DNA of 64,000 bases from Candidatus Omnitrophota bacterium (GCA_028712175.1 JAQTQQ010000003.1:71093-135092), one strand, 5' to 3'. Shown: positions 6,567 through 46,180, numbered from the stretch's first letter. Translations and numbers: made by a program. Notes: generated from the letters alone by a model not told the origin.

Positions 6567-7819
6567 GTGGCCAAACAATAGCTGAAAAGATTTTAAGTAA
6601 GCACGCAGGGAGATATTTACGGGCGGGCGATTTTGCTATTTGTAAAATTGATTTTGCATTCGGCCAAGACGGCACCTCATCGATAATAATCGACCGGATT
6701 AAAGATTTAGGGGTTAAGAAATTTAAGACACGCTATTGCATGGTTATTGACCACAGCGCCCCAAGCCCAAGCGAAGGGGTTTCCCGGGTGCATAAAAAGA
6801 TGCGCGATTTTTCTCAAAAGTTTAAGACGGAGATTTTTGATGTTGGCTGCGGGGTATGCCATCAGGTTATTCCTGAGTCGGGAAATATCATACCCGGCGA
6901 CCTAGTTTTGGGAGCTGACTCTCATACCTGCACCTATGGTGCGCTTGGGGCTTTTTCTACCGGAGTCGGTTCTACTGATTTAGCAGTTGCTCTTGCTACG
7001 GGGAAAAATTGGTTTAAAGTCCCGGAGACTATAAAAATTATTATTAAAGGCAGGATGCCTAAAGGAGTTTTTGCCAAAGATATAATTTTATATATTATCG
7101 GAGAACTTAAGAGTGACGGAGGAACATATAAAGCAGTTGAATTTACCGGCCCGGTGATTGATAATATGGGAATGGACGGCCGCTTTACTATTGCTAATAT
7201 GCTGGTTGAGATGGGGGCAAAAGCAGGTTTTATGCCGGTTGATAAAAAGACTCTTTCCTGGTTGGCTTTGAGGGCGGGGATAAACCGGCGGATTGAAGGT
7301 GTTTCTGCGGATAAAGGAGCTGTCTATCAGAATATTTATGAATTTGATATTTCAAAACTCAAGCCGATGGTTTCTATGCCGCACAGCGTTGACAATACTG
7401 CCTCGGCAGTTTCTCTAAAGAAAACAAAGATTGATGAAGCGTTTTTAGGCACCTGTACTAATGGCCGTATAGATGATTTTAAAGCGGCAGCAAAAGTTTT
7501 AAATAAGCGCAAAGTTTCTAGCCAGGTTAAATTGATCATAGCTCCCAGTTCGAGGCAGGTTTATCTGGAGGCTTTAAAGCTTGGCCTTGTTGAGGTGTTT
7601 ATTAAAGCCGGGGCAGTTATTGTTGCGCCCGGTTGCGGGCCTTGTGTCGGTACACATAACGGCATCCCCAGTGACGCGGAGGTTGTCATTTCAACTGCCA
7701 ACCGTAATTTTAAGGGAAGGATGGGGAATCCTTCGGCTTTTATCTATTTGGCATCACCTGCTACAGTCGCTGCTTCGGCGATTAAAGGCTATATTAGCGA
7801 CCCAAGAATCTACTTCTAA
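6563..7819 (+). CDS. leuC: Aconitase-family dehydratase large subunit (3-isopropylmalate dehydratase/homoaconitase LeuC-like)
   Basis: 418 aa aconitase catalytic domain with CxxC...C Fe-S ligands (GTCTNGR, CGPCVG). Substrate specificity (leu vs homoaconitate vs citramalate) is not decidable from sequence. Confidence 0.8.
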   Translation: MSGQTIAEKILSKHAGRYLRAGDFAICKIDFAFGQDGTSSIIIDRIKDLGVKKFKTRYCMVIDHSAPSPSEGVSRVHKKMRDFSQKFKTEIFDVGCGVCHQVIPESGNIIPGDLVLGADSHTCTYGALGAFSTGVGSTDLAVALATGKNWFKVPETIKIIIKGRMPKGVFAKDIILYIIGELKSDGGTYKAVEFTGPVIDNMGMDGRFTIANMLVEMGAKAGFMPVDKKTLSWLALRAGINRRIEGVSADKGAVYQNIYEFDISKLKPMVSMPHSVDNTASAVSLKKTKIDEAFLGTCTNGRIDDFKAAAKVLNKRKVSSQVKLIIAPSSRQVYLEALKLGLVEVFIKAGAVIVAPGCGPCVGTHNGIPSDAEVVISTANRNFKGRMGNPSAFIYLASPATVAASAIKGYISDPRIYF

Positions 7820-13195: not shown

Positions 13196-14362
13196 ATGGC
13201 GATAGATTATAAAAAGGAATTAGAAAATGCAGCCAGGAACATGATTTTTGTGCACGACCCTGATCTTTTGATTAAGATGATCGTGCGCATGATGGTCAAT
13301 AAGGCCAAAATTACCCACGCCAGTTTTTTCCTGTACAATAGAGAAAAACAAGGCTACATGCTTATGGTTTCCAAAGGTTCCTTAGGTAAACGCATACCCT
13401 TGGATTTAATCTGTATCGATAAAGACGATGTCTTGATCCATTTCTTTAGAGAGCATAAAAGCAGTTTTATTTTTGGGCGCGAGGCCCTGCTTTATAGTGA
13501 AGCAAAATCCGCATTAGAAAACCTTAAAATTAAGCAGGAAACTAAACAGCAGCTTGCGCAAGTTCTTTATCAAATGGAACTTTTAGAAACTGTAGTTTGC
13601 ATTCCCAGCTATTTTCGCGGCGAATTACTCGGTATTTTATTGTTAGGCAAGAAAGAAAACGGAAGGAAATTTTTTGATGAAGAGCTGGATTTTTTTGTCG
13701 CCCTTAATTCTAACGTAGCAATGGCAATCAGAAATGCCCAATTGTTTAAAGAGCTAGAGTATCAACTGGACCGTAAGCATCAGCTTTTTGTGCGTACTAC
13801 CGTAGCTTTGGCTGCGGCTATCGAAGCAAAAGACCACTATACCCATGGACACACTACACGGGTAACAAATCTAAGCATAGAGATAGCTCAAAGGATTGCT
13901 GAAAAGAATAAAAATGAATTCGATGCAAAATTCTTAGAGAATCTGCATATTGCAAGCCTTCTACATGATATTGGTAAAATTGGCGTGCCGGAGCATATCT
14001 TGAATAAGAGGGGGGGATTAACTATCGGCGAACGCAATCGCATTAAGGAGCATCCCATGATTGGGGTTAATATTCTAAAGCCGATTAAAGAGCTGGAGGG
14101 TTCTTTGCTGGGAGTCAGGTACCACCATGAACGGTTTGACGGTAAAGGTTATCCTGAAGGGATATGCGGAAAGCAAATTCCTTTAGTTGCTTCTATAATT
14201 TCGGTGGCAGATTCTTTTGATGCAATGAATACTAACCGGCCGTACCGCTCGGCGCTTGATAAACATGATGCGATTCATGAGATCGGCAGTTTAAGCGGCA
14301 AGCAGTTTTCCCCTCTTGTTACTGATGCTTTTTTAGAGCTCTGCAAGGAAGGTAAATTTTAA
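13196..14362 (+). CDS. HD-GYP domain c-di-GMP phosphodiesterase with N-terminal GAF-like domain
   Basis: HDIGKIGVPEHIL...YHHERFDGKGYPEG motifs of HD-GYP. The N-terminal roughly 190 aa is GAF-like. Confidence 0.8.
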   Translation: MAIDYKKELENAARNMIFVHDPDLLIKMIVRMMVNKAKITHASFFLYNREKQGYMLMVSKGSLGKRIPLDLICIDKDDVLIHFFREHKSSFIFGREALLYSEAKSALENLKIKQETKQQLAQVLYQMELLETVVCIPSYFRGELLGILLLGKKENGRKFFDEELDFFVALNSNVAMAIRNAQLFKELEYQLDRKHQLFVRTTVALAAAIEAKDHYTHGHTTRVTNLSIEIAQRIAEKNKNEFDAKFLENLHIASLLHDIGKIGVPEHILNKRGGLTIGERNRIKEHPMIGVNILKPIKELEGSLLGVRYHHERFDGKGYPEGICGKQIPLVASIISVADSFDAMNTNRPYRSALDKHDAIHEIGSLSGKQFSPLVTDAFLELCKEGKF

Positions 14363-14368
14363 TTCCCC

Positions 14369-15484
14369 ATGCATCCTAAGCGTATAATTTTGATGTATAT
14401 CTCCGAAGTTTCAGGCCACAGAAGCGCTACCATGGCTATCGAGAAGGCAGTAAAACAGCTCCGTCCTGATACCGAAATCATGAATATCAATGCTTTTAAT
14501 TATACTAATCCGATATCCGAGAAAGTTATAAACCGCATTTATATGGAGGTAATTAAGCACACCCCTAAAATCTGGGATTATCTCTATGATAACCCGAGCG
14601 TAGTCAAGGGGCTGGATAAAATCAAGAAGCATGTCCATAAATCCAACTCTCCTAAACTTAAAAAACTTTTCGATAAATTTAACCCTGATTTAATAGTATG
14701 CACGCAGGCGTTTCCATGCGGGATGGTTGCTGATTATAAGAAGACTTATGGTGTAAATCTGCCGTTGGTAGCCGTGCTTACCGATTATATACCGCATTCT
14801 TATTGGGTGTATAATTCGGTAGATTATTATATAACTCCTTCGGAGGATGTTTCAGAGCGCCTGGAGAAAAAAGGCGTAGACCGTTCTAAGATTAAGGCAT
14901 ACGGGATTCCCTTTGATCATAAGTTTAATCAAAAGTTTGATGAGGAGAAAGTTTACCATAAATTAGGGTTAGATTCTAAAAAACCCGTGGTCTTGATTAT
15001 GGGAGGCGGCCAAGGATTAGGCCCAATTAAAACTATCGTCAAGTCCTTAGAAAAAAGTAAACATGATATTCAGGAGTTAATCGTTGCTGGAACAAATAAA
15101 AAACTGTTCTCCAGCTTAAAGCGCAGGATAAAACATTATAAAAAAGACATCCGCCTGTTTGGTTTTATACATAATATTCATGAATTAATGCATATCTCTA
15201 ATGTAATAATATCCAAGCCGGGGGGAGTAACTACTGCTGAAGTTTTAAGCATAGGGCTGCCGATGGTCATTGTTAAGCCTATCCCCGGGCAAGAGGTTAA
15301 CAATACTAATTTTTTGACGCAGAAAGGCGCGGCGGTTAAAGTAGACGACCCCAAAGATGCGTATAAATTTATTGATGAATTACTAAGCGATAAAGCAAAG
15401 TTAGAGCGGTTTAAATTGGCAGCATCTAAAATTGCTAAGCCCAATGCAAGTATGGATATCGCTAACCTCCTGTTGAGTTTATAA
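14369..15484 (+). CDS. GT28-family glycolipid synthase (MGDG synthase / processive diacylglycerol glycosyltransferase-like)
   Basis: 371 aa with an N-terminal MGDG_synth-like region and a C-terminal GT-B nucleotide-sugar-binding region (...GGGQGLGP...). Confidence 0.7.
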   Translation: MHPKRIILMYISEVSGHRSATMAIEKAVKQLRPDTEIMNINAFNYTNPISEKVINRIYMEVIKHTPKIWDYLYDNPSVVKGLDKIKKHVHKSNSPKLKKLFDKFNPDLIVCTQAFPCGMVADYKKTYGVNLPLVAVLTDYIPHSYWVYNSVDYYITPSEDVSERLEKKGVDRSKIKAYGIPFDHKFNQKFDEEKVYHKLGLDSKKPVVLIMGGGQGLGPIKTIVKSLEKSKHDIQELIVAGTNKKLFSSLKRRIKHYKKDIRLFGFIHNIHELMHISNVIISKPGGVTTAEVLSIGLPMVIVKPIPGQEVNNTNFLTQKGAAVKVDDPKDAYKFIDELLSDKAKLERFKLAASKIAKPNASMDIANLLLSL

Positions 15485-15486
15485 CT

Positions 15487-16344
15487 GTGTTAAATTATTA
15501 TTTATACCGCTTAGGCCAATTTATCGCAGTTTCTTTACCGTTGAAACTTGTTTATGCTATCGCCGTTATCTTAGCAGACCTGCATTATGTTTTTGCTTTT
15601 CGCGACAGGAGGTTTGTTAAAAATAACCTGAGGGTTATTTTTCCGCAAGAGGAAAATCGGGTTTTACGCAGGATAAGCCGCAGAGTTTTTCGAAATTTTG
15701 CAAAATACCTTGTAGATTTCTTCCGTTTTGATAAGCTGGACCTTGGATATATAAATAAAAAAGTAAAATTAGAAAATCTTCATTATTTCGATGATGCCAT
15801 AGCCAAAGGGAAGGGAGTGATTGTTCTCACCGCCCATCTTGGTAATTGGGAGCTGGGAGGGGTAGTTATTGCTCTCTTGGGATATCCTTTTTGGGCGGTT
15901 GCCCTGCCGCATAAAAATAAAAAAGTTAATGACTTTTTTGATGCCCGGAGGAACGGAAAAGGTGTCAAGGTAATCGCTATGGGTAAGGCGGTGAGGAGCT
16001 GTATTTCTGAAATCAGGAAGAACCATATGGTCGCCTTGGTAGGCGACCGTGATTTTACCGAAAAAGGGGTGATCGTCGATCTTTTTTCTAAGCCTACTCA
16101 TTTTCCCGAAGGGCCGGCGGCTTTAAGCCTGATTACCGGCGCTTCGATAGTCCCGGGTTTTATGCTTAGAAACCCGGATGATACCTTTACCTTGAGAATT
16201 GAGAGGCCAATAGAATTTTCTCCAAAGGGGGATAAGACAAAAGATCTAACCGAATTGGTAACGATTTACAAAAATATTTTCCAGGATTATATTCGCCGAT
16301 ATCCGGACCAGTGGTATGTTTTTCGCAGGTTTTGGACGGAGTAG
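15487..16344 (+). CDS. Lysophospholipid/lipid A late acyltransferase (LpxL/HtrB family)
   Basis: 285 aa with an N-terminal TM segment, an HX4D-like region (TAHLGNWE) and the LPLAT fold. Start is non-ATG per the ORF track. Confidence 0.7.
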   Translation: MLNYYLYRLGQFIAVSLPLKLVYAIAVILADLHYVFAFRDRRFVKNNLRVIFPQEENRVLRRISRRVFRNFAKYLVDFFRFDKLDLGYINKKVKLENLHYFDDAIAKGKGVIVLTAHLGNWELGGVVIALLGYPFWAVALPHKNKKVNDFFDARRNGKGVKVIAMGKAVRSCISEIRKNHMVALVGDRDFTEKGVIVDLFSKPTHFPEGPAALSLITGASIVPGFMLRNPDDTFTLRIERPIEFSPKGDKTKDLTELVTIYKNIFQDYIRRYPDQWYVFRRFWTE

Positions 16345-16346
16345 AC

Positions 16347-17024
16347 ATGCGCATTTGCGTAATTATTCCAGCTTATAACGAAGCAAAAGAAATCGCAGGC
16401 TTAATTAGGCGTATAACCGGGTTAGGCTTGGAGGTAATTATAATCGATGACGGCTCTCTGGATGATACGGCGATGATTGCCGCTTCAGCCGGGGCGAATG
16501 TTTTGCGTAATAGCTCAAATGCCGGTAAGGGGGCAGCCTTAATTAAGGGGTATAGTTATGCCGTTGCCCATGGTTTTGATGCGGTAATAAGTATGGATGG
16601 CGATGGTCAGCATTCTTGCCTTGATATAGAAACATTCATTCAAAAAGCGAAAACTTCGCCTGCCGCAGTTATTGCCGGTAACCGTATGGCAATGACTAAA
16701 GGGATGCCTGCTTTACGTGTTTTAACCAATCGTCTTATGTCGCGCCTGATTTCGTTAATTACCAAACAATATATTCCCGATACCCAGTGTGGGTTCCGCC
16801 TGATAAAAAAAGAGGTCCTTGCAGGGTTAGATTTTTCTACTACTAAATATGAGACTGAATCTGAAATTTTGATCAAGGCGGCGCGTTTAGGCTTTAAAAT
16901 TGAATCTGTCCCGGTCAAAACAATATATTCCGGACAAAAAAGCCAGATTAATCCCGTTATTGACACCTTAAGGTTTTTTCGTTTTATAATCCTTGAGTTT
17001 TTAAGGAGCTTTAAACATGCTTGA
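16347..17024 (+). CDS. GT2 polyprenol-phosphate glycosyltransferase (GtrB/dolichol-P-mannose synthase-like)
   Basis: MRICVIIPAYNE... DDGSxD ... DGDGQH motifs. Start is chosen at ATG 16347, just after the upstream stop. The ORF-track start at 16311 overlaps the previous gene. Confidence 0.8.
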   Translation: MRICVIIPAYNEAKEIAGLIRRITGLGLEVIIIDDGSLDDTAMIAASAGANVLRNSSNAGKGAALIKGYSYAVAHGFDAVISMDGDGQHSCLDIETFIQKAKTSPAAVIAGNRMAMTKGMPALRVLTNRLMSRLISLITKQYIPDTQCGFRLIKKEVLAGLDFSTTKYETESEILIKAARLGFKIESVPVKTIYSGQKSQINPVIDTLRFFRFIILEFLRSFKHA

Positions 17025-18163: not shown

Positions 18164-19396
18164 TTGTCAGGGGTATCTGATATGTTGAATGATAATTTGA
18201 ATAAAATGAATAATCCAGCGGACAGTCTGGTCCTATATATTTTGCGCAATACAATAGAAGAAAAAGATGGTTTCAAAATAAAAGATATAATTGCAGGCGG
18301 AATTATTGATTGGGCAAGATTTAAAGATCTGATTATTTGCCATGAGATTGTTGTTATTGCATATTTGGGGCTTAAACCGTATTTTTCTTTGTTGCCGCTT
18401 AAACTGGCTGAATTCTTGAGGGATAGATATTATGCTAATATTGTGCGTTGCCAGCGTCTCCAGCAGGCTTTTTTAGGGATAACCGAGGCAAGTAATAGGC
18501 TGGGGATAAGCGTTGTGCCGATAAAGGGAGTAGCTTTGCTGGAAGACATTTACAAGGGCAGAAATTTGAGGCAAATGGCAGATATTGATATATTGGTTAA
18601 AGAAAATGATTTTTCAAAGCTGGAAGGTGTGCTCTATGGTTTGGGTTACAAAAAAGAATTAGGCGGATTAAAAGAGGGGTATTGGAAGAAAAGCCAATGC
18701 CATATTAGTTTTTTAAAGAAGGAGTCAGGCAATATTACTTTGTTCATAGATGCGCATTGGGCGCTTGATTTTAAACGAAAGAACAGGGTTCTCTTGCCGA
18801 AACTGTGGGATAGGGTCAGAAAACTTGATTTTCAGGGCCGGAATATAGAAGTGCTCTCTCCGGAAGATACTTTTATCAGCTTGGCCATGCATAACCGCAG
18901 GTTTGGCAGGGTACTCGGTTTTAAAAACATTTGTGACTCGGCTTTGCTGCTGGATAAATATGCTTCTTGTTTTGATTGGAGTTATGTCCTAGAGGAAAGC
19001 AGAAAATCAAAATTTTGCTCAACCGTATTCTTTGCGCTTTGTTGCGTAAAGATTCTGTTTTCTGCGCATATCCCTGATTTTGTTTGGAAAGAATTAAAAG
19101 TGGGCAGGTGGAAAAGATTGATTACAACCAGATTCATTGAGAGAAATATTTATTATCCGGTTGACTTTACGCAGGACAAGGATATTTATTTAAAGGCGCA
19201 CTTTCTTCTTTATGACAGCATATTAGAGCCTATAACATATATTCTAAACATACCGCAGGAGCAATTCGCAAAATTTTATAATCTTGTCCAGTATAGCAGG
19301 ATAACCGGTTTTTTTTACCGGTGCCGTTTTCTTTATATTCCGTTTAAGGCAATTTTCTTTAAAAACAAAAATGGTGCGCTAAGACATTCTAAATAG
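18164..19396 (+). CDS. PF14907-like (NTP_transf_5) uncharacterised nucleotidyltransferase family protein
   Basis: 410 aa. ...PIKGVALLEDIYKGRNLRQMADIDILVKENDFSKLEGVLYGLGY... and ...LFIDAHWAL... resemble the Pol-beta-type NTase family that co-occurs with HPr-kinase-like and PqqD genes. Start is TTG 18164 (GGGAGG 12 nt upstream) or ATG 18182. Confidence 0.6.
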   Translation: MSGVSDMLNDNLNKMNNPADSLVLYILRNTIEEKDGFKIKDIIAGGIIDWARFKDLIICHEIVVIAYLGLKPYFSLLPLKLAEFLRDRYYANIVRCQRLQQAFLGITEASNRLGISVVPIKGVALLEDIYKGRNLRQMADIDILVKENDFSKLEGVLYGLGYKKELGGLKEGYWKKSQCHISFLKKESGNITLFIDAHWALDFKRKNRVLLPKLWDRVRKLDFQGRNIEVLSPEDTFISLAMHNRRFGRVLGFKNICDSALLLDKYASCFDWSYVLEESRKSKFCSTVFFALCCVKILFSAHIPDFVWKELKVGRWKRLITTRFIERNIYYPVDFTQDKDIYLKAHFLLYDSILEPITYILNIPQEQFAKFYNLVQYSRITGFFYRCRFLYIPFKAIFFKNKNGALRHSK

Positions 19397-19434
19397 GAAA
19401 ACGGTCAATTTTTTAATCCTGTTTTATATATACT

Positions 19435-19463
19435 TGTTTAAGGGCAGAATATCTGTTACAATT
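19435..19463 (+). promoter_or_regulatory. sigma70-type promoter (TTGTTT-17-TACAAT) upstream of precursor peptide
   Basis: TTGTTT at 19435-19440. Spacer is 17 nt. TACAAT at 19458-19463. Confidence 0.4.
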
Positions 19464-19545
19464 ATTAAAGAAATGATCACTCTATTTTAAAATCCTTTAT
19501 TATGTTGCTTGATTCCTGCAGAGTTGCAAGAAAAGGGGAGATCGG

Positions 19546-19725
19546 ATGCCAAAGAGTAAATTAACCGTTAAAAAGAAATGGGTTGCGCCAAAGCTTAAGA
19601 CAATGTTATTAACAGAAGTTGATGCGCATTTGGCTACCTGTATTAAGTCGGCCGAGTTTGTTAGACCTGCGGATCCGCCAACTTGCCGCGGCCTCGGTAG
19701 CTGTAGCCGTCCTTTTAATAGCTAA
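19546..19725 (+). CDS. Candidate RiPP precursor peptide (59 aa; below ORF-track cutoff)
   Basis: ATG at 19546 is preceded by GGGGAG 5 nt upstream. Translation is MPKSKLTVKKKWVAPKLKTMLLTEVDAHLATCIKSAEFVRPADPPTCRGLGSCSRPFNS. It has a basic leader with W-x-A-P...L-T-E-V and a core with 3 Cys and a C-terminal Ser. It sits between the NTase gene and the HprK-like/rSAM genes. Confidence 0.6.
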   Translation: MPKSKLTVKKKWVAPKLKTMLLTEVDAHLATCIKSAEFVRPADPPTCRGLGSCSRPFNS

Positions 19726-19772
19726 ATTTTAAGCTATCCTGCTATATTCAAAAAAAGATTTTTTCATTAATA

Positions 19773-20633
19773 ATGAGTCCTGCCAGTGATCCTGTAAGAA
19801 ACGATTCTTTTTTAACCATCTCTATAGCTGATATTAAAATTAGGTTTGAGGCTTTAAACAGCCGCCTTCTTAAAAGCCTAAAAGTCCATTATGGTGGTTT
19901 TTGCATATCAAGTGCCATTTCTGATGTCGCGATACGCTTAATTGAAAGGAAAATCTCTGTACCCAACGGTTCTGCGCTATTATACAAAAATAGGACGTGG
20001 AGCGTAGTAAAAGATTCTAAATACAAATGGATCATTTTTTCTGATAATTCGGTTGCCTGTTGCTCGCATGATTGGAGCAGGGTAGATTTCTTTAGCGAAG
20101 GCCCACGGCAGCAATTGCTTTTTTTCTTGTTGCCGGAAATATTGACGATATCCGCATTGCCCAAATTTAAAGGATTAATGGCCCATGGCTGTGGCGTGTT
20201 AGACAGAACAGGAAAGCAGGGCTGGGCTTTTTTAGCTTCTTCTGGCGGAGGAAAGTCTACTATGGCCGGGCTGCTTAAACCCTACGTACGTGTTTTAAAT
20301 GATGATAGAATTATTTTGCGTAAAACTAAGGACGGGGTAAGAATGTATGGGACGCCCTGGCATGGGGAATTATCATTGACTTCATCAAAATCCGTATTGA
20401 TTAGGGATATCTATTTTTTGCAAAAAGCGGGTATTCATAGCATTAATTCAATGAGCAAATTGATATTCCTGAAAGGTTTATTAAAAAATACTGCTTTGCC
20501 TAAATGGGATAACAATGCATATAGGATCACTCTGCGGCTGTTATTTTTTCTGGCGGAATATATGTGCGGCAAAAAGTTGCATTTTGCTAAAAACAGTTCA
20601 GTGTATGGATATATTAAAAGGGAATTGACTTAA
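19773..20633 (+). CDS. HPr kinase/phosphorylase C-terminal-domain-like putative peptide Ser kinase
   Basis: 286 aa. ...MAHGCGVLDRTGKQGWAFLASSGGGKSTMAGLL...VLNDDRIIL... is a P-loop of the HprK-related type (cf. HprK GDSGVGKSE). There is no HprK N-domain. Confidence 0.65.
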   Translation: MSPASDPVRNDSFLTISIADIKIRFEALNSRLLKSLKVHYGGFCISSAISDVAIRLIERKISVPNGSALLYKNRTWSVVKDSKYKWIIFSDNSVACCSHDWSRVDFFSEGPRQQLLFFLLPEILTISALPKFKGLMAHGCGVLDRTGKQGWAFLASSGGGKSTMAGLLKPYVRVLNDDRIILRKTKDGVRMYGTPWHGELSLTSSKSVLIRDIYFLQKAGIHSINSMSKLIFLKGLLKNTALPKWDNNAYRITLRLLFFLAEYMCGKKLHFAKNSSVYGYIKRELT

Positions 20634-20635
20634 GA

Positions 20636-22042
20636 ATGATGCAAGAAGAGGAAATGTTTATCCCTCCGGATGTTGCCTGGCGCCCTGTGGGAGACCGTTT
20701 AGTTGTAATTAAAATTGCATCTGGCCAGCATCCCGAGCATACGATTACCGAGTTAAATAGAGAAGCCGCTCTTATTTGGAAGTTTTTTTCCGAAACAGGG
20801 CTAAGCCATGGCCGGCTCATTGCAAAATTAATGCCGCATTATAATATAAACCGGTCAAGCATGGCTTCGGATATCTCGGCATTTTTGAATAAGGCTATCG
20901 CAAAAGGGCTGCTTCAGAAAACAACTAAAAAAAAGAGCTTTCGGGATGGCCGCCTTGCTTCCCAAGATTTTCCGGTATGGACGGAATATTTCTCTTACTG
21001 TTTTAAAAATCTCATCCCTTATTCAGCGACATTGGAATTAAATACTACCTGTAACCAAAGATGCCTGCACTGTTATAATAACGGACACGGAGAAGCCGGT
21101 TTATCGGCAAAATTGGTTTATAGCGCTTTAGACCAGCTTTCCGATTTGGGAACGATTATTCTCTTGCTTAGCGGAGGCGAGCCTTTGATGCGGAAGGATT
21201 TTTTTAAATTGGCTGCATATGCGCGACAAAGGCATTTTGCCTTAAGAATATTTACTAACGCAACATTAATTGATGAAGAAAGCGCAAAGAAAATCAGCCA
21301 GTTATACCCAATGACTGTTGAAACGAGCCTGTATGGCATATCAAGCCGGGTGCATGAACGGATTACGCAGCGTAAGGGGTCTTTTATGCGTACGATAAAA
21401 GCAATCCGTTTCTTGAAGAAATACCAGGTTCCGGTATTTGTTAAAGTGGTTTTGATGCGTGAAAACGCTGTAGAGATAAAACGGTTGGAGGATTTTGTAG
21501 TTAACATATTAGGAGTTGGGTTTCGTGGTGTAAGCCCTATTATAACCCCAAAAACATCCGGCAATTTTTTGCCCATGAAGCATGTTGTTTCTCGAAATAT
21601 GCTGAAAGAGTATTTAAACAGCTTGCGATATACTGCCTCGGGATTAAAGGCTAAGCCAATGGTTGATAAGAGCAGCAATAAGGCAATAAATAAAGGCCGC
21701 TTGTGTGGTTCCGGAAGGACTACGATTTATATAAATGCAAAAGGCAGACTCTCTCCTTGCTTAGAAGCAGAAACCACAAGCTGGAATATAAAAAAAGATC
21801 GTATTCGTGATTTTTGGCAGAATTCAAGCGAACTTGCGGCGCTTAGATCGTTATCTCCGGAAGCATTGGTGCAGTGTAAGGCCTGTCCGGACAAAGAATT
21901 TTGTATTTTTTCCTGCATTGCTTTATCAAAAAAAATATATGGCGATTATGCCGTTCCTATTAAAAAATATTGTGAATTTACAAAGGTATACAGGGCTTCT
22001 TCTGTAGCAAGCCGAGTGGATCAAAAGAGGCAGTTTATTTAA
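20636..22042 (+). CDS. PqqD-like RRE domain fused to radical SAM / SPASM-domain peptide maturase
   Basis: N-terminal roughly 95 aa is PqqD-like (WRPVGDRLVVIKIASGQHPEHTITELNREAALIWKFF..., ...ISAFLNKAIAKGLL). rSAM cluster CNQRCLHCYN plus LLSGGEPLM. C-terminal SPASM cysteines CGSGRTTIYINAKGRLSPC...CKACPDKEFC. Confidence 0.8.
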   Translation: MMQEEEMFIPPDVAWRPVGDRLVVIKIASGQHPEHTITELNREAALIWKFFSETGLSHGRLIAKLMPHYNINRSSMASDISAFLNKAIAKGLLQKTTKKKSFRDGRLASQDFPVWTEYFSYCFKNLIPYSATLELNTTCNQRCLHCYNNGHGEAGLSAKLVYSALDQLSDLGTIILLLSGGEPLMRKDFFKLAAYARQRHFALRIFTNATLIDEESAKKISQLYPMTVETSLYGISSRVHERITQRKGSFMRTIKAIRFLKKYQVPVFVKVVLMRENAVEIKRLEDFVVNILGVGFRGVSPIITPKTSGNFLPMKHVVSRNMLKEYLNSLRYTASGLKAKPMVDKSSNKAINKGRLCGSGRTTIYINAKGRLSPCLEAETTSWNIKKDRIRDFWQNSSELAALRSLSPEALVQCKACPDKEFCIFSCIALSKKIYGDYAVPIKKYCEFTKVYRASSVASRVDQKRQFI

Positions 22043-22048
22043 TTTTTC

Positions 22049-22077
22049 TTGACAGAAAAAGGTATTTGCATTAACAT
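22049..22077 (+). promoter_or_regulatory. sigma70-type promoter (TTGACA-17-TAACAT)
   Basis: TTGACA at 22049-22054. Spacer is 17 nt. TAACAT at 22072-22077. Lies upstream of the membrane protein gene. RBS AGGAGAGGAG precedes ATG 22145. Confidence 0.4.
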
Positions 22078-22144
22078 TACAAATAATAAACCGCACCGTT
22101 GATTGGTGAGGGCTGCTTAAGGCAGCAGCCAGGAGAGGAGCCAA

Positions 22145-22645
22145 ATGCTAGCAATTAGTTTAATTTTAATCGGAATATTATTCAGGTTTATACCGCATAC
22201 CGCAAATTTTACCCCAGTGGCTGCGATTGCTTTGTTTGCCGGGGTATATTTAAACAAAAAACAGGCTTTAATTGTGCCGCTTTTACTTATGATTATAAGC
22301 GACATTTTCTTAGGAATGCATAATGTGGTTATTTTTACCTGGGGAAGTTTTCTTCTTGTTACCCTTGTTGGCTTTTGGGCAAGAGGCCGTAAGAGCGTCA
22401 GGCGAACGGTTTTTGCAACAATAGTTTCTTCTGTTTTATTTTATCTGGTAACTAATTTTGGTGTTTGGTCCATGGGTTGGTATCCTCAGAATTTAAAAGG
22501 ATTATTGGACTGCTATATTCTGGGCCTGCCATTTTTACGCATATTTAGTATTTCGACTCTTTTATATACGGCAATTTTCTTTGGTGCTTACGAATTAATT
22601 GCTTCAAAGCTCCGTAATACAAAATTAGCCAAAGTTCTTTTGTAA
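22145..22645 (+). CDS. Small polytopic membrane protein (5 TM; ECF-S-component-like, function unknown)
   Basis: 166 aa, very hydrophobic, no catalytic motifs. Last gene of the RiPP-like cluster. Confidence 0.5.
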   Translation: MLAISLILIGILFRFIPHTANFTPVAAIALFAGVYLNKKQALIVPLLLMIISDIFLGMHNVVIFTWGSFLLVTLVGFWARGRKSVRRTVFATIVSSVLFYLVTNFGVWSMGWYPQNLKGLLDCYILGLPFLRIFSISTLLYTAIFFGAYELIASKLRNTKLAKVLL

Positions 22646-22661
22646 TAAGTTTTAAAAAACA

Positions 22662-22932
22662 GGTTTGTTAAGAGCAAGGGAAGGCCGTGTAAATCGGCCA
22701 CAGTTCCCGCTGCTGTAACTCCGCCCTTTTAAGGGAACCAATTTGGTAAGTTTTATGCCACTGTCTATAATGGATGGGAAGGCAAGCCAAAAAGGCGGAG
22801 GAGTCAGAAGACCTCTCTTAGGCAAACGAAATTGTTCAATGCGACTTTTAAGCCCGCGGACAGGCTTAAATGGGTTAAAAAGCAGGGATAACCCTTGAGT
22901 TAATTTTATTAAACTCAAGGGTTTTTTGTTTT
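22662..22932 (+). promoter_or_regulatory. Cobalamin riboswitch with terminator/antiterminator expression platform
   Basis: Core AGCAAGGGAAGGCCGTGTAAATCGGCCACAGTTCCCGCTGCTGTAAC matches the B12-element consensus (AGGGAA..GGTGnAAnTCC...CCCGCnaCTGTAA). A second GCCACTG box lies at about 22757. The 3' end has the alternative hairpins GGGTTAaaaagcagggaTAACCC versus aacccttgagtt...aactcaaggg plus a T-run. Confidence 0.65.
22890..22932 (+). terminator. Intrinsic terminator of riboswitch expression platform
   Basis: aacccttgagtt-aattttatta-aactcaaggg followed by ttttttgtttt. Confidence 0.6.
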
Positions 22933-45688: not shown

Positions 45689-46180
45689 TTACCTGTTTGT
45701 TGTAAGAGTAGTAATTTTTCCTTCAAGCTCTAATTCCACGCTATTTGGAGTAATTTTTCTTACTTTCGCCCCGCTAACAGAATCGTTCTCTTTTACAATC
45801 CGGTTGTTTATTAACGCGTATTTGCCGTTAGTTGAGAAGAAAGTTCCGTTTAAAACAAAATTTCTTTTTTCTGATTCAAGATCGGGCTCCGGGGTTTTGC
45901 TTTTTTCTTTTGGCGGCTCTGCCGGGGTAACGGCTAAAGCAGGAGGGGTAACTGCCAATTGTCCGGCAGGGATAGTTTTTTTGGGGGCCTCTTGAGGTTT
46001 TGCTTTTTTGTTTAATATATTTAATATGATATTGCCTAAAAACAGCCCTACTAAAAGAACCAGTATATATAAAAGTATTGGGTTTTGCGCAGGCTTTGTT
46101 TCTGCGGGCGCATTTTGATGAGCAGTATTTCCTGGGTTCTGCGCTTCCGGATTTTTCAGGGGTTCATTAATAATACTCAT
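45689..46180 (-). CDS. Pro/Ala-rich membrane-anchored protein with GspB-like (T2SS protein B) C-terminal domain
   Basis: TM at ...ILLYILVLLVGLFLG.... Pro-rich linker. C-terminus ...FVLNGTFFSTNGKYALINNRIVKENDSV.GAKVRKITPNSVELE.... Confidence 0.4.
   Translation of the reverse strand: MSIINEPLKNPEAQNPGNTAHQNAPAETKPAQNPILLYILVLLVGLFLGNIILNILNKKAKPQEAPKKTIPAGQLAVTPPALAVTPAEPPKEKSKTPEPDLESEKRNFVLNGTFFSTNGKYALINNRIVKENDSVSGAKVRKITPNSVELELEGKITTLTTNR

Follow-up and report, generated by a model that had tools for sequence, protein, structure and literature searches.

A candidate RiPP gene cluster in Candidatus Omnitrophota combining a radical SAM/SPASM enzyme with a ScmC-like kinase-fold protein and a nucleotidyltransferase

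We analyzed a stretch of 64,000 nt from a metagenome-assembled genome of Candidatus Omnitrophota, referred to throughout as the window; NCBI and JGI entries from a bin of this kind match its rSAM and kinase-like proteins with 100% identity. Between positions 18164 and 22042, on the + strand, it carries a cassette of four genes encoding a nucleotidyltransferase (NTase), a short peptide, a ScmC-like protein with a kinase fold, and a radical SAM (rSAM) enzyme with a SPASM domain. Sequence comparison indicates, with a probability of about 0.6, that these genes are a real, compact gene cluster for a peptide made on ribosomes and modified after translation (RiPP) and that the cluster belongs to a widespread and apparently uncharacterized family.

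Four genes in a compact block

The open reading frames (ORFs) and domains that an earlier note on this DNA had assigned to the block were all found in place, and Pfam searches agree with them. The four genes of the cassette are as follows.

18164-19396, + strand: PF14907 (NTP_transf_5) nucleotidyltransferase (Pfam, E = 1.2e-42)
19546-19725, + strand: precursor peptide of 59 aa (family profile match, Cys register and ribosome binding site)
19773-20633, + strand: ScmC-like (PF27840) P-loop protein of 286 aa, a putative peptide Ser kinase (precomputed Pfam annotation)
20636-22042, + strand: fusion of a PqqD-like RiPP recognition element (RRE), a radical SAM domain and a SPASM domain (Pfam PqqD, Radical_SAM and SPASM)

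The NTase gene begins with TTG, with a Shine-Dalgarno sequence (GGGAGG) 11 nt upstream, and a strong ribosome binding site with the Shine-Dalgarno sequence GGGGAG precedes the 59-aa precursor ORF. The rSAM gene starts 2 nt past the stop codon of the ScmC-like gene with GGGA just before it, and this close spacing, together with the upstream GGGA, suggests that the pair may be translationally coupled. Two other points of the earlier note did not hold. It had credited each gene with a strong promoter or ribosome binding site of its own; individual promoters are not supported, since promoter-like sites number 16 against 16.0 expected from shuffles. It had also placed the genes in one tight + strand block; virtually all ORFs of the window lie on that strand, and given this bias strand cannot serve as operon evidence. 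Only a few of the ORFs that reach 150 aa lie on the - strand, and these overlap + strand genes except for one at 45689-46180; GC skew is positive across the whole profiled region of the window.

Co-orientation throughout the window and promoter-like sites at chance level would suit an account in which the genes are merely adjacent and form no functional unit. Against this account stand the 2 nt that separate the ScmC-like stop from the rSAM start and the recurrence of the gene set across many phyla, as set out below. Cross-phylum co-occurrence effectively refutes mere adjacency, which we regard as scarcely credible.

The cassette recurs in many phyla

Relatives of the ScmC-like protein were collected through a profile-guided scan of GTDB species genomes, in which at least 565 genomes contained one, and an exhaustive search with a hidden Markov model (HMM) placed 9,745 clusters at 50% identity in the family (E ≤ 1e-10). 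We called ORFs in 80 genomic loci, here numbered with the prefix L, and built HMMs from them; 80 metagenomic loci formed a second, independent set. For the counts of cassette genes we used 37 non-redundant loci whose flanks reached 4 kb or more in both directions.

There was a consistent set of genes in these well-flanked cassettes: a PqqD/RRE gene in 36/37, a cassette-type rSAM gene in 33/37, a precursor gene in 37/37, an S24-type peptidase gene in 33/37 and a PF14907 NTase gene in 17/37. The metagenomic loci show the same pattern. The neighborhood comparison that the earlier note had proposed therefore supports its grouping, in that the kinase-like gene is kept beside a small peptide gene in every one of the 37 loci and beside an NTase gene in 17 of them. 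The RRE is a discrete protein in 36 of the 37 loci; that of the window is fused to the rSAM enzyme. The family occurs mostly in uncultivated, anaerobe-rich phyla.

Around ScmC-like homologues from Fermentibacteria and Aminicenantes, gene order runs PqqD, rSAM, small ORF, ScmC-like, GNAT and (NTase). The S24 domain takes several forms across the loci: it stands alone, is fused to a GNAT acetyltransferase, or forms the N-terminal part of giant Peptidase_C25/DUF11/CARDB proteins. S24 fusions follow the ScmC-like gene in L012 (8876-12637), L050 (8767-14250), L063 (8509-15963) and L027 (8822-9712). The giant proteins of Acidobacteriota measure 1,250-2,480 aa and carry DUF11/CARDB repeats and a C-terminal, gingipain-like Peptidase_C25 domain.

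The window belongs with L001, L008, L011 and L088 to a subfamily that we term W-type and that is largely from Omnitrophota. In its members the leader motif has Trp, the cores are more divergent, and the genes run in the order (NTase), ScmC-like, RRE, rSAM. An S24 peptidase is absent from L008 and L011, and none was detected in the examined part of L088. From its gene content, the window copy is a trimmed W-type variant, with its RRE fused and without the S24 leader peptidase, GNAT domain and exporter.

The 59-aa peptide belongs, as a divergent member, to a conserved precursor family

Small ORFs beside ScmC-like genes form a highly coherent family, with HMM matches of 1e-21 to 1e-8 in nearly every locus. 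Members have a [Y/W]xxPx[VIL] leader and usually three Cys, and the consensus reads K-x-Y-x-K-P-x-[VIL]-x-x-V-x-L-x-P-E-E-A-V-L-G-x-C-K, followed by ...G-P...C...C... and an end in G-S. No Pfam or NCBIfam model matches either the canonical family peptides or the window peptide. The first Cys lies exactly +20 from the leader aromatic residue in 104/105 three-Cys precursors, and Lys comes next in 104/105; positions +22 and +23 are rich in Ser/Thr.

A C-terminal Ser or Thr, mostly within Gly-Ser, is present in 77/79 unique peptides of the genomic set and 58/58 of the metagenomic set, or 135/137 in total. Among ORFs of comparable size the background is 16% (p = 7e-59 for the genomic set). The two peptides that lack this residue are both without Cys and come from one locus, L048, where they are extra copies. 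There, at 6581-7643, tandem precursor-like ORFs have near-identical leaders, and two of them have truncated, Cys-less cores; these two may be decayed copies. Some loci have two ScmC-like paralogs: L069 (365-619), and also L012, L013 and L035. The second paralog of L069 lies near another type of peptide (..KPYRRPTLTRYGSLRDLTRETGCNDAKDGGSNAACRRT), which has YxxPxL, Cys+20 and a C-terminal Thr and is otherwise unmatched in the family.

The window precursor, MPKSKLTVKKKWVAPKLKTMLLTEVDAHLATCIKSAEFVRPADPPTCRGLGSCSRPFNS, has 59 residues and ends in ...SRPFNS. It contains the leader WVAPKL, Asp+14, Cys residues at +20, +35 and +41, and a C-terminal Ser; after WVAPKL the spacing is Asp+14-Ala-x-Leu-Ala-x-Cys+20. 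Its Cys register of 20/15/6/6 compares with a family mode of 20/13-16/5-7/5-6. It is the sole match to a precursor HMM built without it when all six frames of the 64-kb window are searched. We also wrote a signature as a regular expression that requires the leader motif, an acidic +14 residue, Cys+20 and Ser/Thr at the C-terminus. Among 31,250 ORFs it matches 114, namely 113 HMM-positive precursors and the window peptide, and no others. By register, signature and HMM match, the 59-aa ORF on which the earlier note had built its reading is conserved, and on this sequence evidence the window peptide is a divergent member of the precursor family with the same register.

The rSAM enzyme has the architecture of a peptide maturase

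The earlier note had made its reading depend on a PqqD-fold domain at the N-terminus of the rSAM protein, and three lines of evidence place one there. The PqqD domain (about residues 7-92) scores 28.9 bits against a Pfam gathering cut-off of 23.4; the N-domain matches the HMM of discrete cassette RREs at 3.1e-7; and the N-terminal 90 residues fold as beta3-alpha3 in AlphaFold with moderate confidence. The radical SAM core has the CX3CX2C motif as C139-x3-C143-x2-C146. The SPASM cysteines, C357, C375, C414, C417, C423, C427 and others, are invariant. The top full-length Foldseek matches of the model are SuiB, SkfB, CteB, TigE and PqqE. Thus the RRE, rSAM and SPASM architecture of a maturase, as first described for this protein in the earlier note, is borne out by its Pfam domains, its invariant cysteines and its best structural matches, SuiB, SkfB and CteB.

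With respect to curated families, the window rSAM falls below every NCBIfam family cut-off, the best match being NirJ2 at 119.6 bits against a cut-off of 500; the PapB and StsB models match at 81-100 bits. Against a cassette-rSAM HMM made without its close relatives it scores 220 bits, and it therefore belongs to the cassette's own rSAM clade. Its closest homologue, from freshwater metagenomes, is 46% identical, also has a PqqD domain, and lies in the gene order NTase, ScmC-like, PqqD, PqqD-rSAM, 49-aa ORF and S24 peptidase. The closest relative of the window cluster, L001 (4717-10127), has a discrete PqqD protein as well as a PqqD-rSAM fusion. Downstream in L001 follow genes for an S24 peptidase, for a radical SAM enzyme of the B12-binding kind and for a protein with a SPASM domain, which suggests that the L001 cluster may have extra tailoring relative to that of the window.

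The ScmC-like protein has a kinase fold and its NTase neighbor a Pol-beta-type motif

The ScmC-like protein is filed under Pfam PF27840 ('ScmC') in the newer precomputed annotation and matches the family HMM at 1.7e-59. It contains the motifs H138-x-C-G, S157-G-G-G-K-S-T (the P-loop ASSGGGKST) and N176-D-D-R, and all the family-invariant columns, HxCG, GxSxxGKST, LNDDR and YGTPWHG, are kept. Structure comparison assigns it to the PEPCK/HprK kinase fold. Among the local Pfam and NCBIfam models there is a weak match to TIGR04355 HprK_rel_B (7e-6). The models of HPr kinase/phosphorylase proper, TIGR00679 and PF07475, give 12-15 bits (E 0.009-0.11), below their cut-offs of 240 and 33.3 bits. The P-loop, the DD motif and the fold are shared with HprK-family kinases; sequence similarity to the HprK models stays under their cut-offs. 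A metagenome search with the protein gave no relative above about 32% identity among the matches listed.

The NTase carries a Pol-beta-type G..DxD motif (..IKGVALL..MADIDILV..). W-type loci L008 and L001 encode its nearest relatives (363 and 310 bits, respectively), which are the NTases at the corresponding position.

Proposed chemistry

In the scheme that we propose, the PqqD-like RRE, here fused to the rSAM enzyme, would bind the WVAPKL leader, given that [Y/W]xxPx[L/V/I] is the element bound by PqqD-type RREs in the systems of lasso peptides and of linear polyphosphorylated peptides (LPP) (PMC13381572). The rSAM/SPASM enzyme would install at least one intramolecular crosslink at a conserved Cys, the likeliest being a ranthipeptide-like thioether that joins Cys to acidic residue +14, which is Asp in the window and Glu in most family members. 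By analogy with PadeK, PsmK and LppK, the ScmC-like enzyme would phosphorylate the C-terminal Ser, perhaps repeatedly. The PF14907 NTase-fold enzyme would then add a further group, for example a hexose, onto the phosphate, as PsmN does. In paeninodin and pseudomycoidin the C-terminal Ser becomes polyphosphorylated on its side chain through the HprK-type kinases PadeK and PsmK, with a DD-to-AA mutant being inactive, and the NTP-transferase PsmN is required for one or two hexoses on that phosphate (PMC6993621). LppK polyphosphorylates a Ser in linear peptides and belongs, as the HprK-like kinase, to a portable module whose other parts are an SpI-like peptidase, an RRE and an NTP transferase (PMC13381572).

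Phosphorylation of the C-terminal Ser by the putative ScmC-like kinase has strong indirect support from sequence conservation, because 135 of the 137 unique precursors end in Ser or Thr. Moreover, loci with only RRE, precursor, kinase and NTase (L034 and L043), from which the rSAM and S24 genes have been lost, keep a C-terminal Gly-Ser, and the residue is therefore tied to the kinase and NTase and not to the rSAM enzyme or the peptidase.

The same RiPP cluster could also be read with the phosphate elsewhere: the kinase might act on an internal Ser/Thr, such as one just after the first Cys, or the phosphate might act as the leaving group in an elimination, as it does in class III/IV lanthipeptides. 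In either case the C-terminal Ser/Thr would be kept for some other purpose, such as export, peptidase recognition or rSAM recognition. The Ser/Thr-rich positions +22 and +23 would offer such sites, and the residue targeted by LppK is core Ser3 (PMC13381572), which means that the target site is not fixed within the kinase class. However, the C-terminal Ser/Thr is the sole near-invariant hydroxyl residue of the family, it persists in loci that retain kinase and NTase after loss of rSAM and S24, and no lyase domain was seen in the cassette. We consider an internal site unlikely and prefer phosphorylation at the C-terminus.

Evidence on the crosslink comes from the number of cysteines. Three-Cys precursors occur with an rSAM gene in 45/46 cases, and four-Cys precursors without one in 5/5. 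Residue +14 is Glu in 93/104 three-Cys peptides and Cys in 11/12 four-Cys peptides. Desulfobacterota cassettes that lack the rSAM gene, comprising RRE, precursor, ScmC-like protein and NTase, are found in L014, L030, L034, L043 and L052 (also L032, L074 and L083), and the fourth Cys of their precursors sits at the Glu+14 site (DAxCAVLGxCK vs PEEAVLGxCK). This covariation probably comes from one Desulfobacterota clade, and for that reason it only weakly suggests that the rSAM enzyme may join Cys to acidic residue +14, with a disulfide perhaps taking its place in the rSAM-less lineage.

The rSAM enzyme may equally be imagined to make a C-C or C-O crosslink, to epimerize residues, or to act on C-terminal residues in the manner of MftC and PqqE, with the cysteines forming disulfides or serving as metal ligands. 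Its best curated matches are a mixture of NirJ2, AhbD, mycofactocin and PqqE-type models with sactipeptide and ranthipeptide maturases, all far under cut-off; its top structural match, SuiB, forms a C-C bond; and the unusually conserved core is more cofactor- or signal-like than antibiotic-like. Arguing the other way, the number of cysteines covaries with the rSAM gene, with the extra Cys replacing the acidic +14 residue as would fit a swap of thioether for disulfide, and a fixed Cys register is typical of sactipeptide and ranthipeptide substrates. We therefore hold such other chemistries to be somewhat unlikely, and retain a thioether between Cys and the acidic +14 residue as the working proposal.

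Weighing the interpretation

Several observations weigh against our interpretation of the locus. Every chemical step proposed for the family is one that we infer, the kinase taken as precedent in LPP peptides acts on the internal Ser3 and not on a C-terminal Ser (PMC13381572), and the switch from Glu to Cys at +14 may be a single evolutionary event. In structure the ScmC-like protein best matches PEPCK, not HprK, and in sequence it has marginal similarity to HprK (E about 0.06). Fewer than half of the cassettes (17/37) have the NTase. In the window itself, the match of the precursor to the family HMM reaches only 15.9 bits (E 0.012), and its residue +21 is Ile, where Lys is invariant in the family; the S24 HMM finds nothing in any frame of the 64 kb, compared with 33 of 37 cassettes that have this peptidase; and there is no exporter.

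The features particular to the window would be expected if its copy were a decaying or incomplete remnant that yields no mature product: the missing S24-like peptidase and exporter, the divergent precursor without the otherwise invariant Lys+21, and a kinase-like protein whose relatives reach at most about 32% identity among the matches listed. Such decay is difficult to square with the catalytic motifs of the kinase-like and rSAM proteins, which are all intact, or with ORFs that are all full length and have good translation signals or coupling. The W-type Omnitrophota loci L008 and L011 are also without S24, which suggests a functional layout of this lineage with the peptidase encoded elsewhere. 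A remnant is, in our judgment, quite unlikely, and a real, compact RiPP gene cluster remains the preferred interpretation.

Comparison with known systems

The cassette resembles the phosphorylated lasso peptide systems of paeninodin (PadeK) and pseudomycoidin (PsmK/PsmN) in having an HprK-type kinase, an NTP transferase and a PqqD-like RRE, a [Y/W]xxPxL leader and a C-terminal Ser. In contrast to those systems, its defining enzyme is an rSAM/SPASM protein and its kinase-like protein is a distant, ScmC-like relative; moreover, the hosts of phosphorylated lasso peptides are Bacillota, whereas the hosts of this family are Gram-negative or uncultivated phyla. A scan of the block found neither a lasso macrolactam synthetase (Asn-synthase-like) nor a B2 cysteine protease domain in any of its proteins, and with no cyclase or B2 protease in the block its identity as a lasso cluster was ruled out.

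The LPP systems (Popov et al., 2026, PMC13381572), whose RRE is discrete and which are without a class-defining cyclase, share with the cassette the set of peptidase, RRE, kinase and NTase, with the S24-type peptidase in 33/37 canonical cassettes, and both LPP clusters and the cassette often lie near envelope or polysaccharide genes. They differ in having no rSAM enzyme and no Cys-rich conserved core, in being phosphorylated on Ser3, in their variable C-termini and in their restriction to Bacillota (PMC13381572). Identity with LPP was ruled out by the presence of the rSAM gene and by the absence of an SpI-like peptidase and an MsbA-like exporter from the window.

In SynChlorMet, a cassette defined in TIGRFAMs/NCBIfam (SCM; ScmC TIGR04249, ScmE TIGR04250, ScmF TIGR04251), a ScmC-type HprK-related protein is likewise associated with PqqD and a PqqE-like rSAM/SPASM enzyme, although two rSAM/SPASM proteins are present there and one here. 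Membership was rejected on scores: the window protein has no TIGR04249 match (E < 0.01) and its relatives reach 16-35 bits against a cut-off of 125, and the window rSAM, with 99.4 bits for ScmE and 76.9 bits for ScmF, stays below the cut-offs of 400 that apply to both. Nevertheless, the association of a ScmC-type protein with PqqD and rSAM/SPASM is already catalogued bioinformatically via SCM.

Like the maturases of sactipeptides and ranthipeptides (CteB, SkfB, PapB) and SuiB, the window enzyme combines RRE, rSAM and SPASM domains, a CX3CX2C motif and a full set of SPASM cysteines with a Cys-containing core in the substrate (three Cys here). Unlike them, it sits in a cassette-specific clade below every curated cut-off. 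No characterized maturase of the sactipeptide/ranthipeptide class with a kinase and NTase partner was found in the literature searched, which lacks most subscription journals. In the same literature no RiPP publication brings HprK or HPr kinase together with either radical SAM or SPASM, and there are zero occurrences of SynChlorMet, PF27840 or TIGR04249. The earlier note was aware of no characterization of this combination of enzymes. That holds as far as the publications searched go, but the combination is not specific to this locus, being widespread and partly catalogued as Pfam 'ScmC' and SynChlorMet. What is new here is the delineation of the family, the precursor signature, the predicted phosphorylation site and the predicted crosslink acceptor.

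Neighboring genes

The features that flank the cassette are, as far as recurrence shows, incidental neighbors.

Upstream of the cassette: cobO (Pfam)
22145-22645, + strand: DUF6580 membrane protein (Pfam)
22654-22834: cobalamin riboswitch (75 bits), with a TonB-dependent receptor gene and a TonB-like gene downstream

The earlier note had included the small DUF6580 membrane protein in the cluster. We rejected it as a member of the cassette: none of the 160 related loci has a homologue, and the gene has its own promoter-like site and ribosome binding site. This promoter-like site is the sole 10/12 match. The upstream signals consist of TTGACA-17-TAACAT (22049-22077), a GC-rich hairpin (~22110-22130) and a strong ribosome binding site, and the end of the gene is 9 nt from the cobalamin riboswitch. 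A role for DUF6580 in B12 uptake or salvage with cobO, btuB and TonB is conceivable from this arrangement; full-text searches of the same literature returned no publication on DUF6580. A functional tie between the cassette and the B12 genes was also rejected. In none of the 160 loci does the cassette have cobO or the TonB receptor nearby, and the rSAM enzyme has no B12-binding domain; the position between cobO and the riboswitch, whose meaning the earlier note had left open, is incidental.

An HD-GYP/HD_5 protein is encoded within a few kb of the cassette in L027, L046 and L070, and in the window 5 kb upstream (13196-14362); the family being generic, this recurrence is probably a coincidence. 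Glycosyltransferase genes and a lipid A acyltransferase gene lie upstream in the window (14369-17024). Envelope and exopolysaccharide genes often flank cassettes elsewhere (L027 12598-14508, L049 3825-7094 and L054; also L031, L043 and L083), and include genes for Wzz/GNVR/BY-kinase-like proteins with SPOR domains, OmpA-family proteins, an AAA_22 ATPase and ABC-2 transporters. These surroundings echo the capsule-locus context reported for LPP and paeninodin clusters.

Implications

The core and its Cys register are kept across Acidobacteriota, Desulfobacterota, Nitrospirota, Aminicenantes, Omnitrophota, Fermentibacteria and other phyla. On a broader reading of the family, about which our opinion is evenly divided, it would constitute a new RiPP class defined by a thioether between Cys and Glu/Asp+14 together with C-terminal phosphorylation or phospho-glycosylation. 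Conservation across phyla would then imply a shared physiological role, for example one that is envelope-associated, in signaling or cofactor-like, and not that of a hypervariable antibiotic. The kinase, NTase, RRE and signal-peptidase-like protein would on this reading form an ancient, portable unit that was independently joined to lasso cyclases, to rSAM enzymes, or to nothing, as in LPP and the rSAM-less four-Cys variants.

The chemistry is directly testable, since the precursor signature, the predicted C-terminal Ser site and the predicted acidic +14 acceptor are specific, and the rSAM-less loci with Cys+14 provide a natural control. Confirmation would make this the first RiPP family in which radical SAM crosslinking, HprK-type peptide phosphorylation and NTase decoration come together, and many uncultivated phyla would be added to the range of the phospho-tailoring module, beyond the lasso and linear peptides of Bacillota. 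It would also give a function to the PF27840/ScmC-like proteins, which make up about 10,000 clusters at 50% identity, and a precursor model for SynChlorMet-type cassettes.

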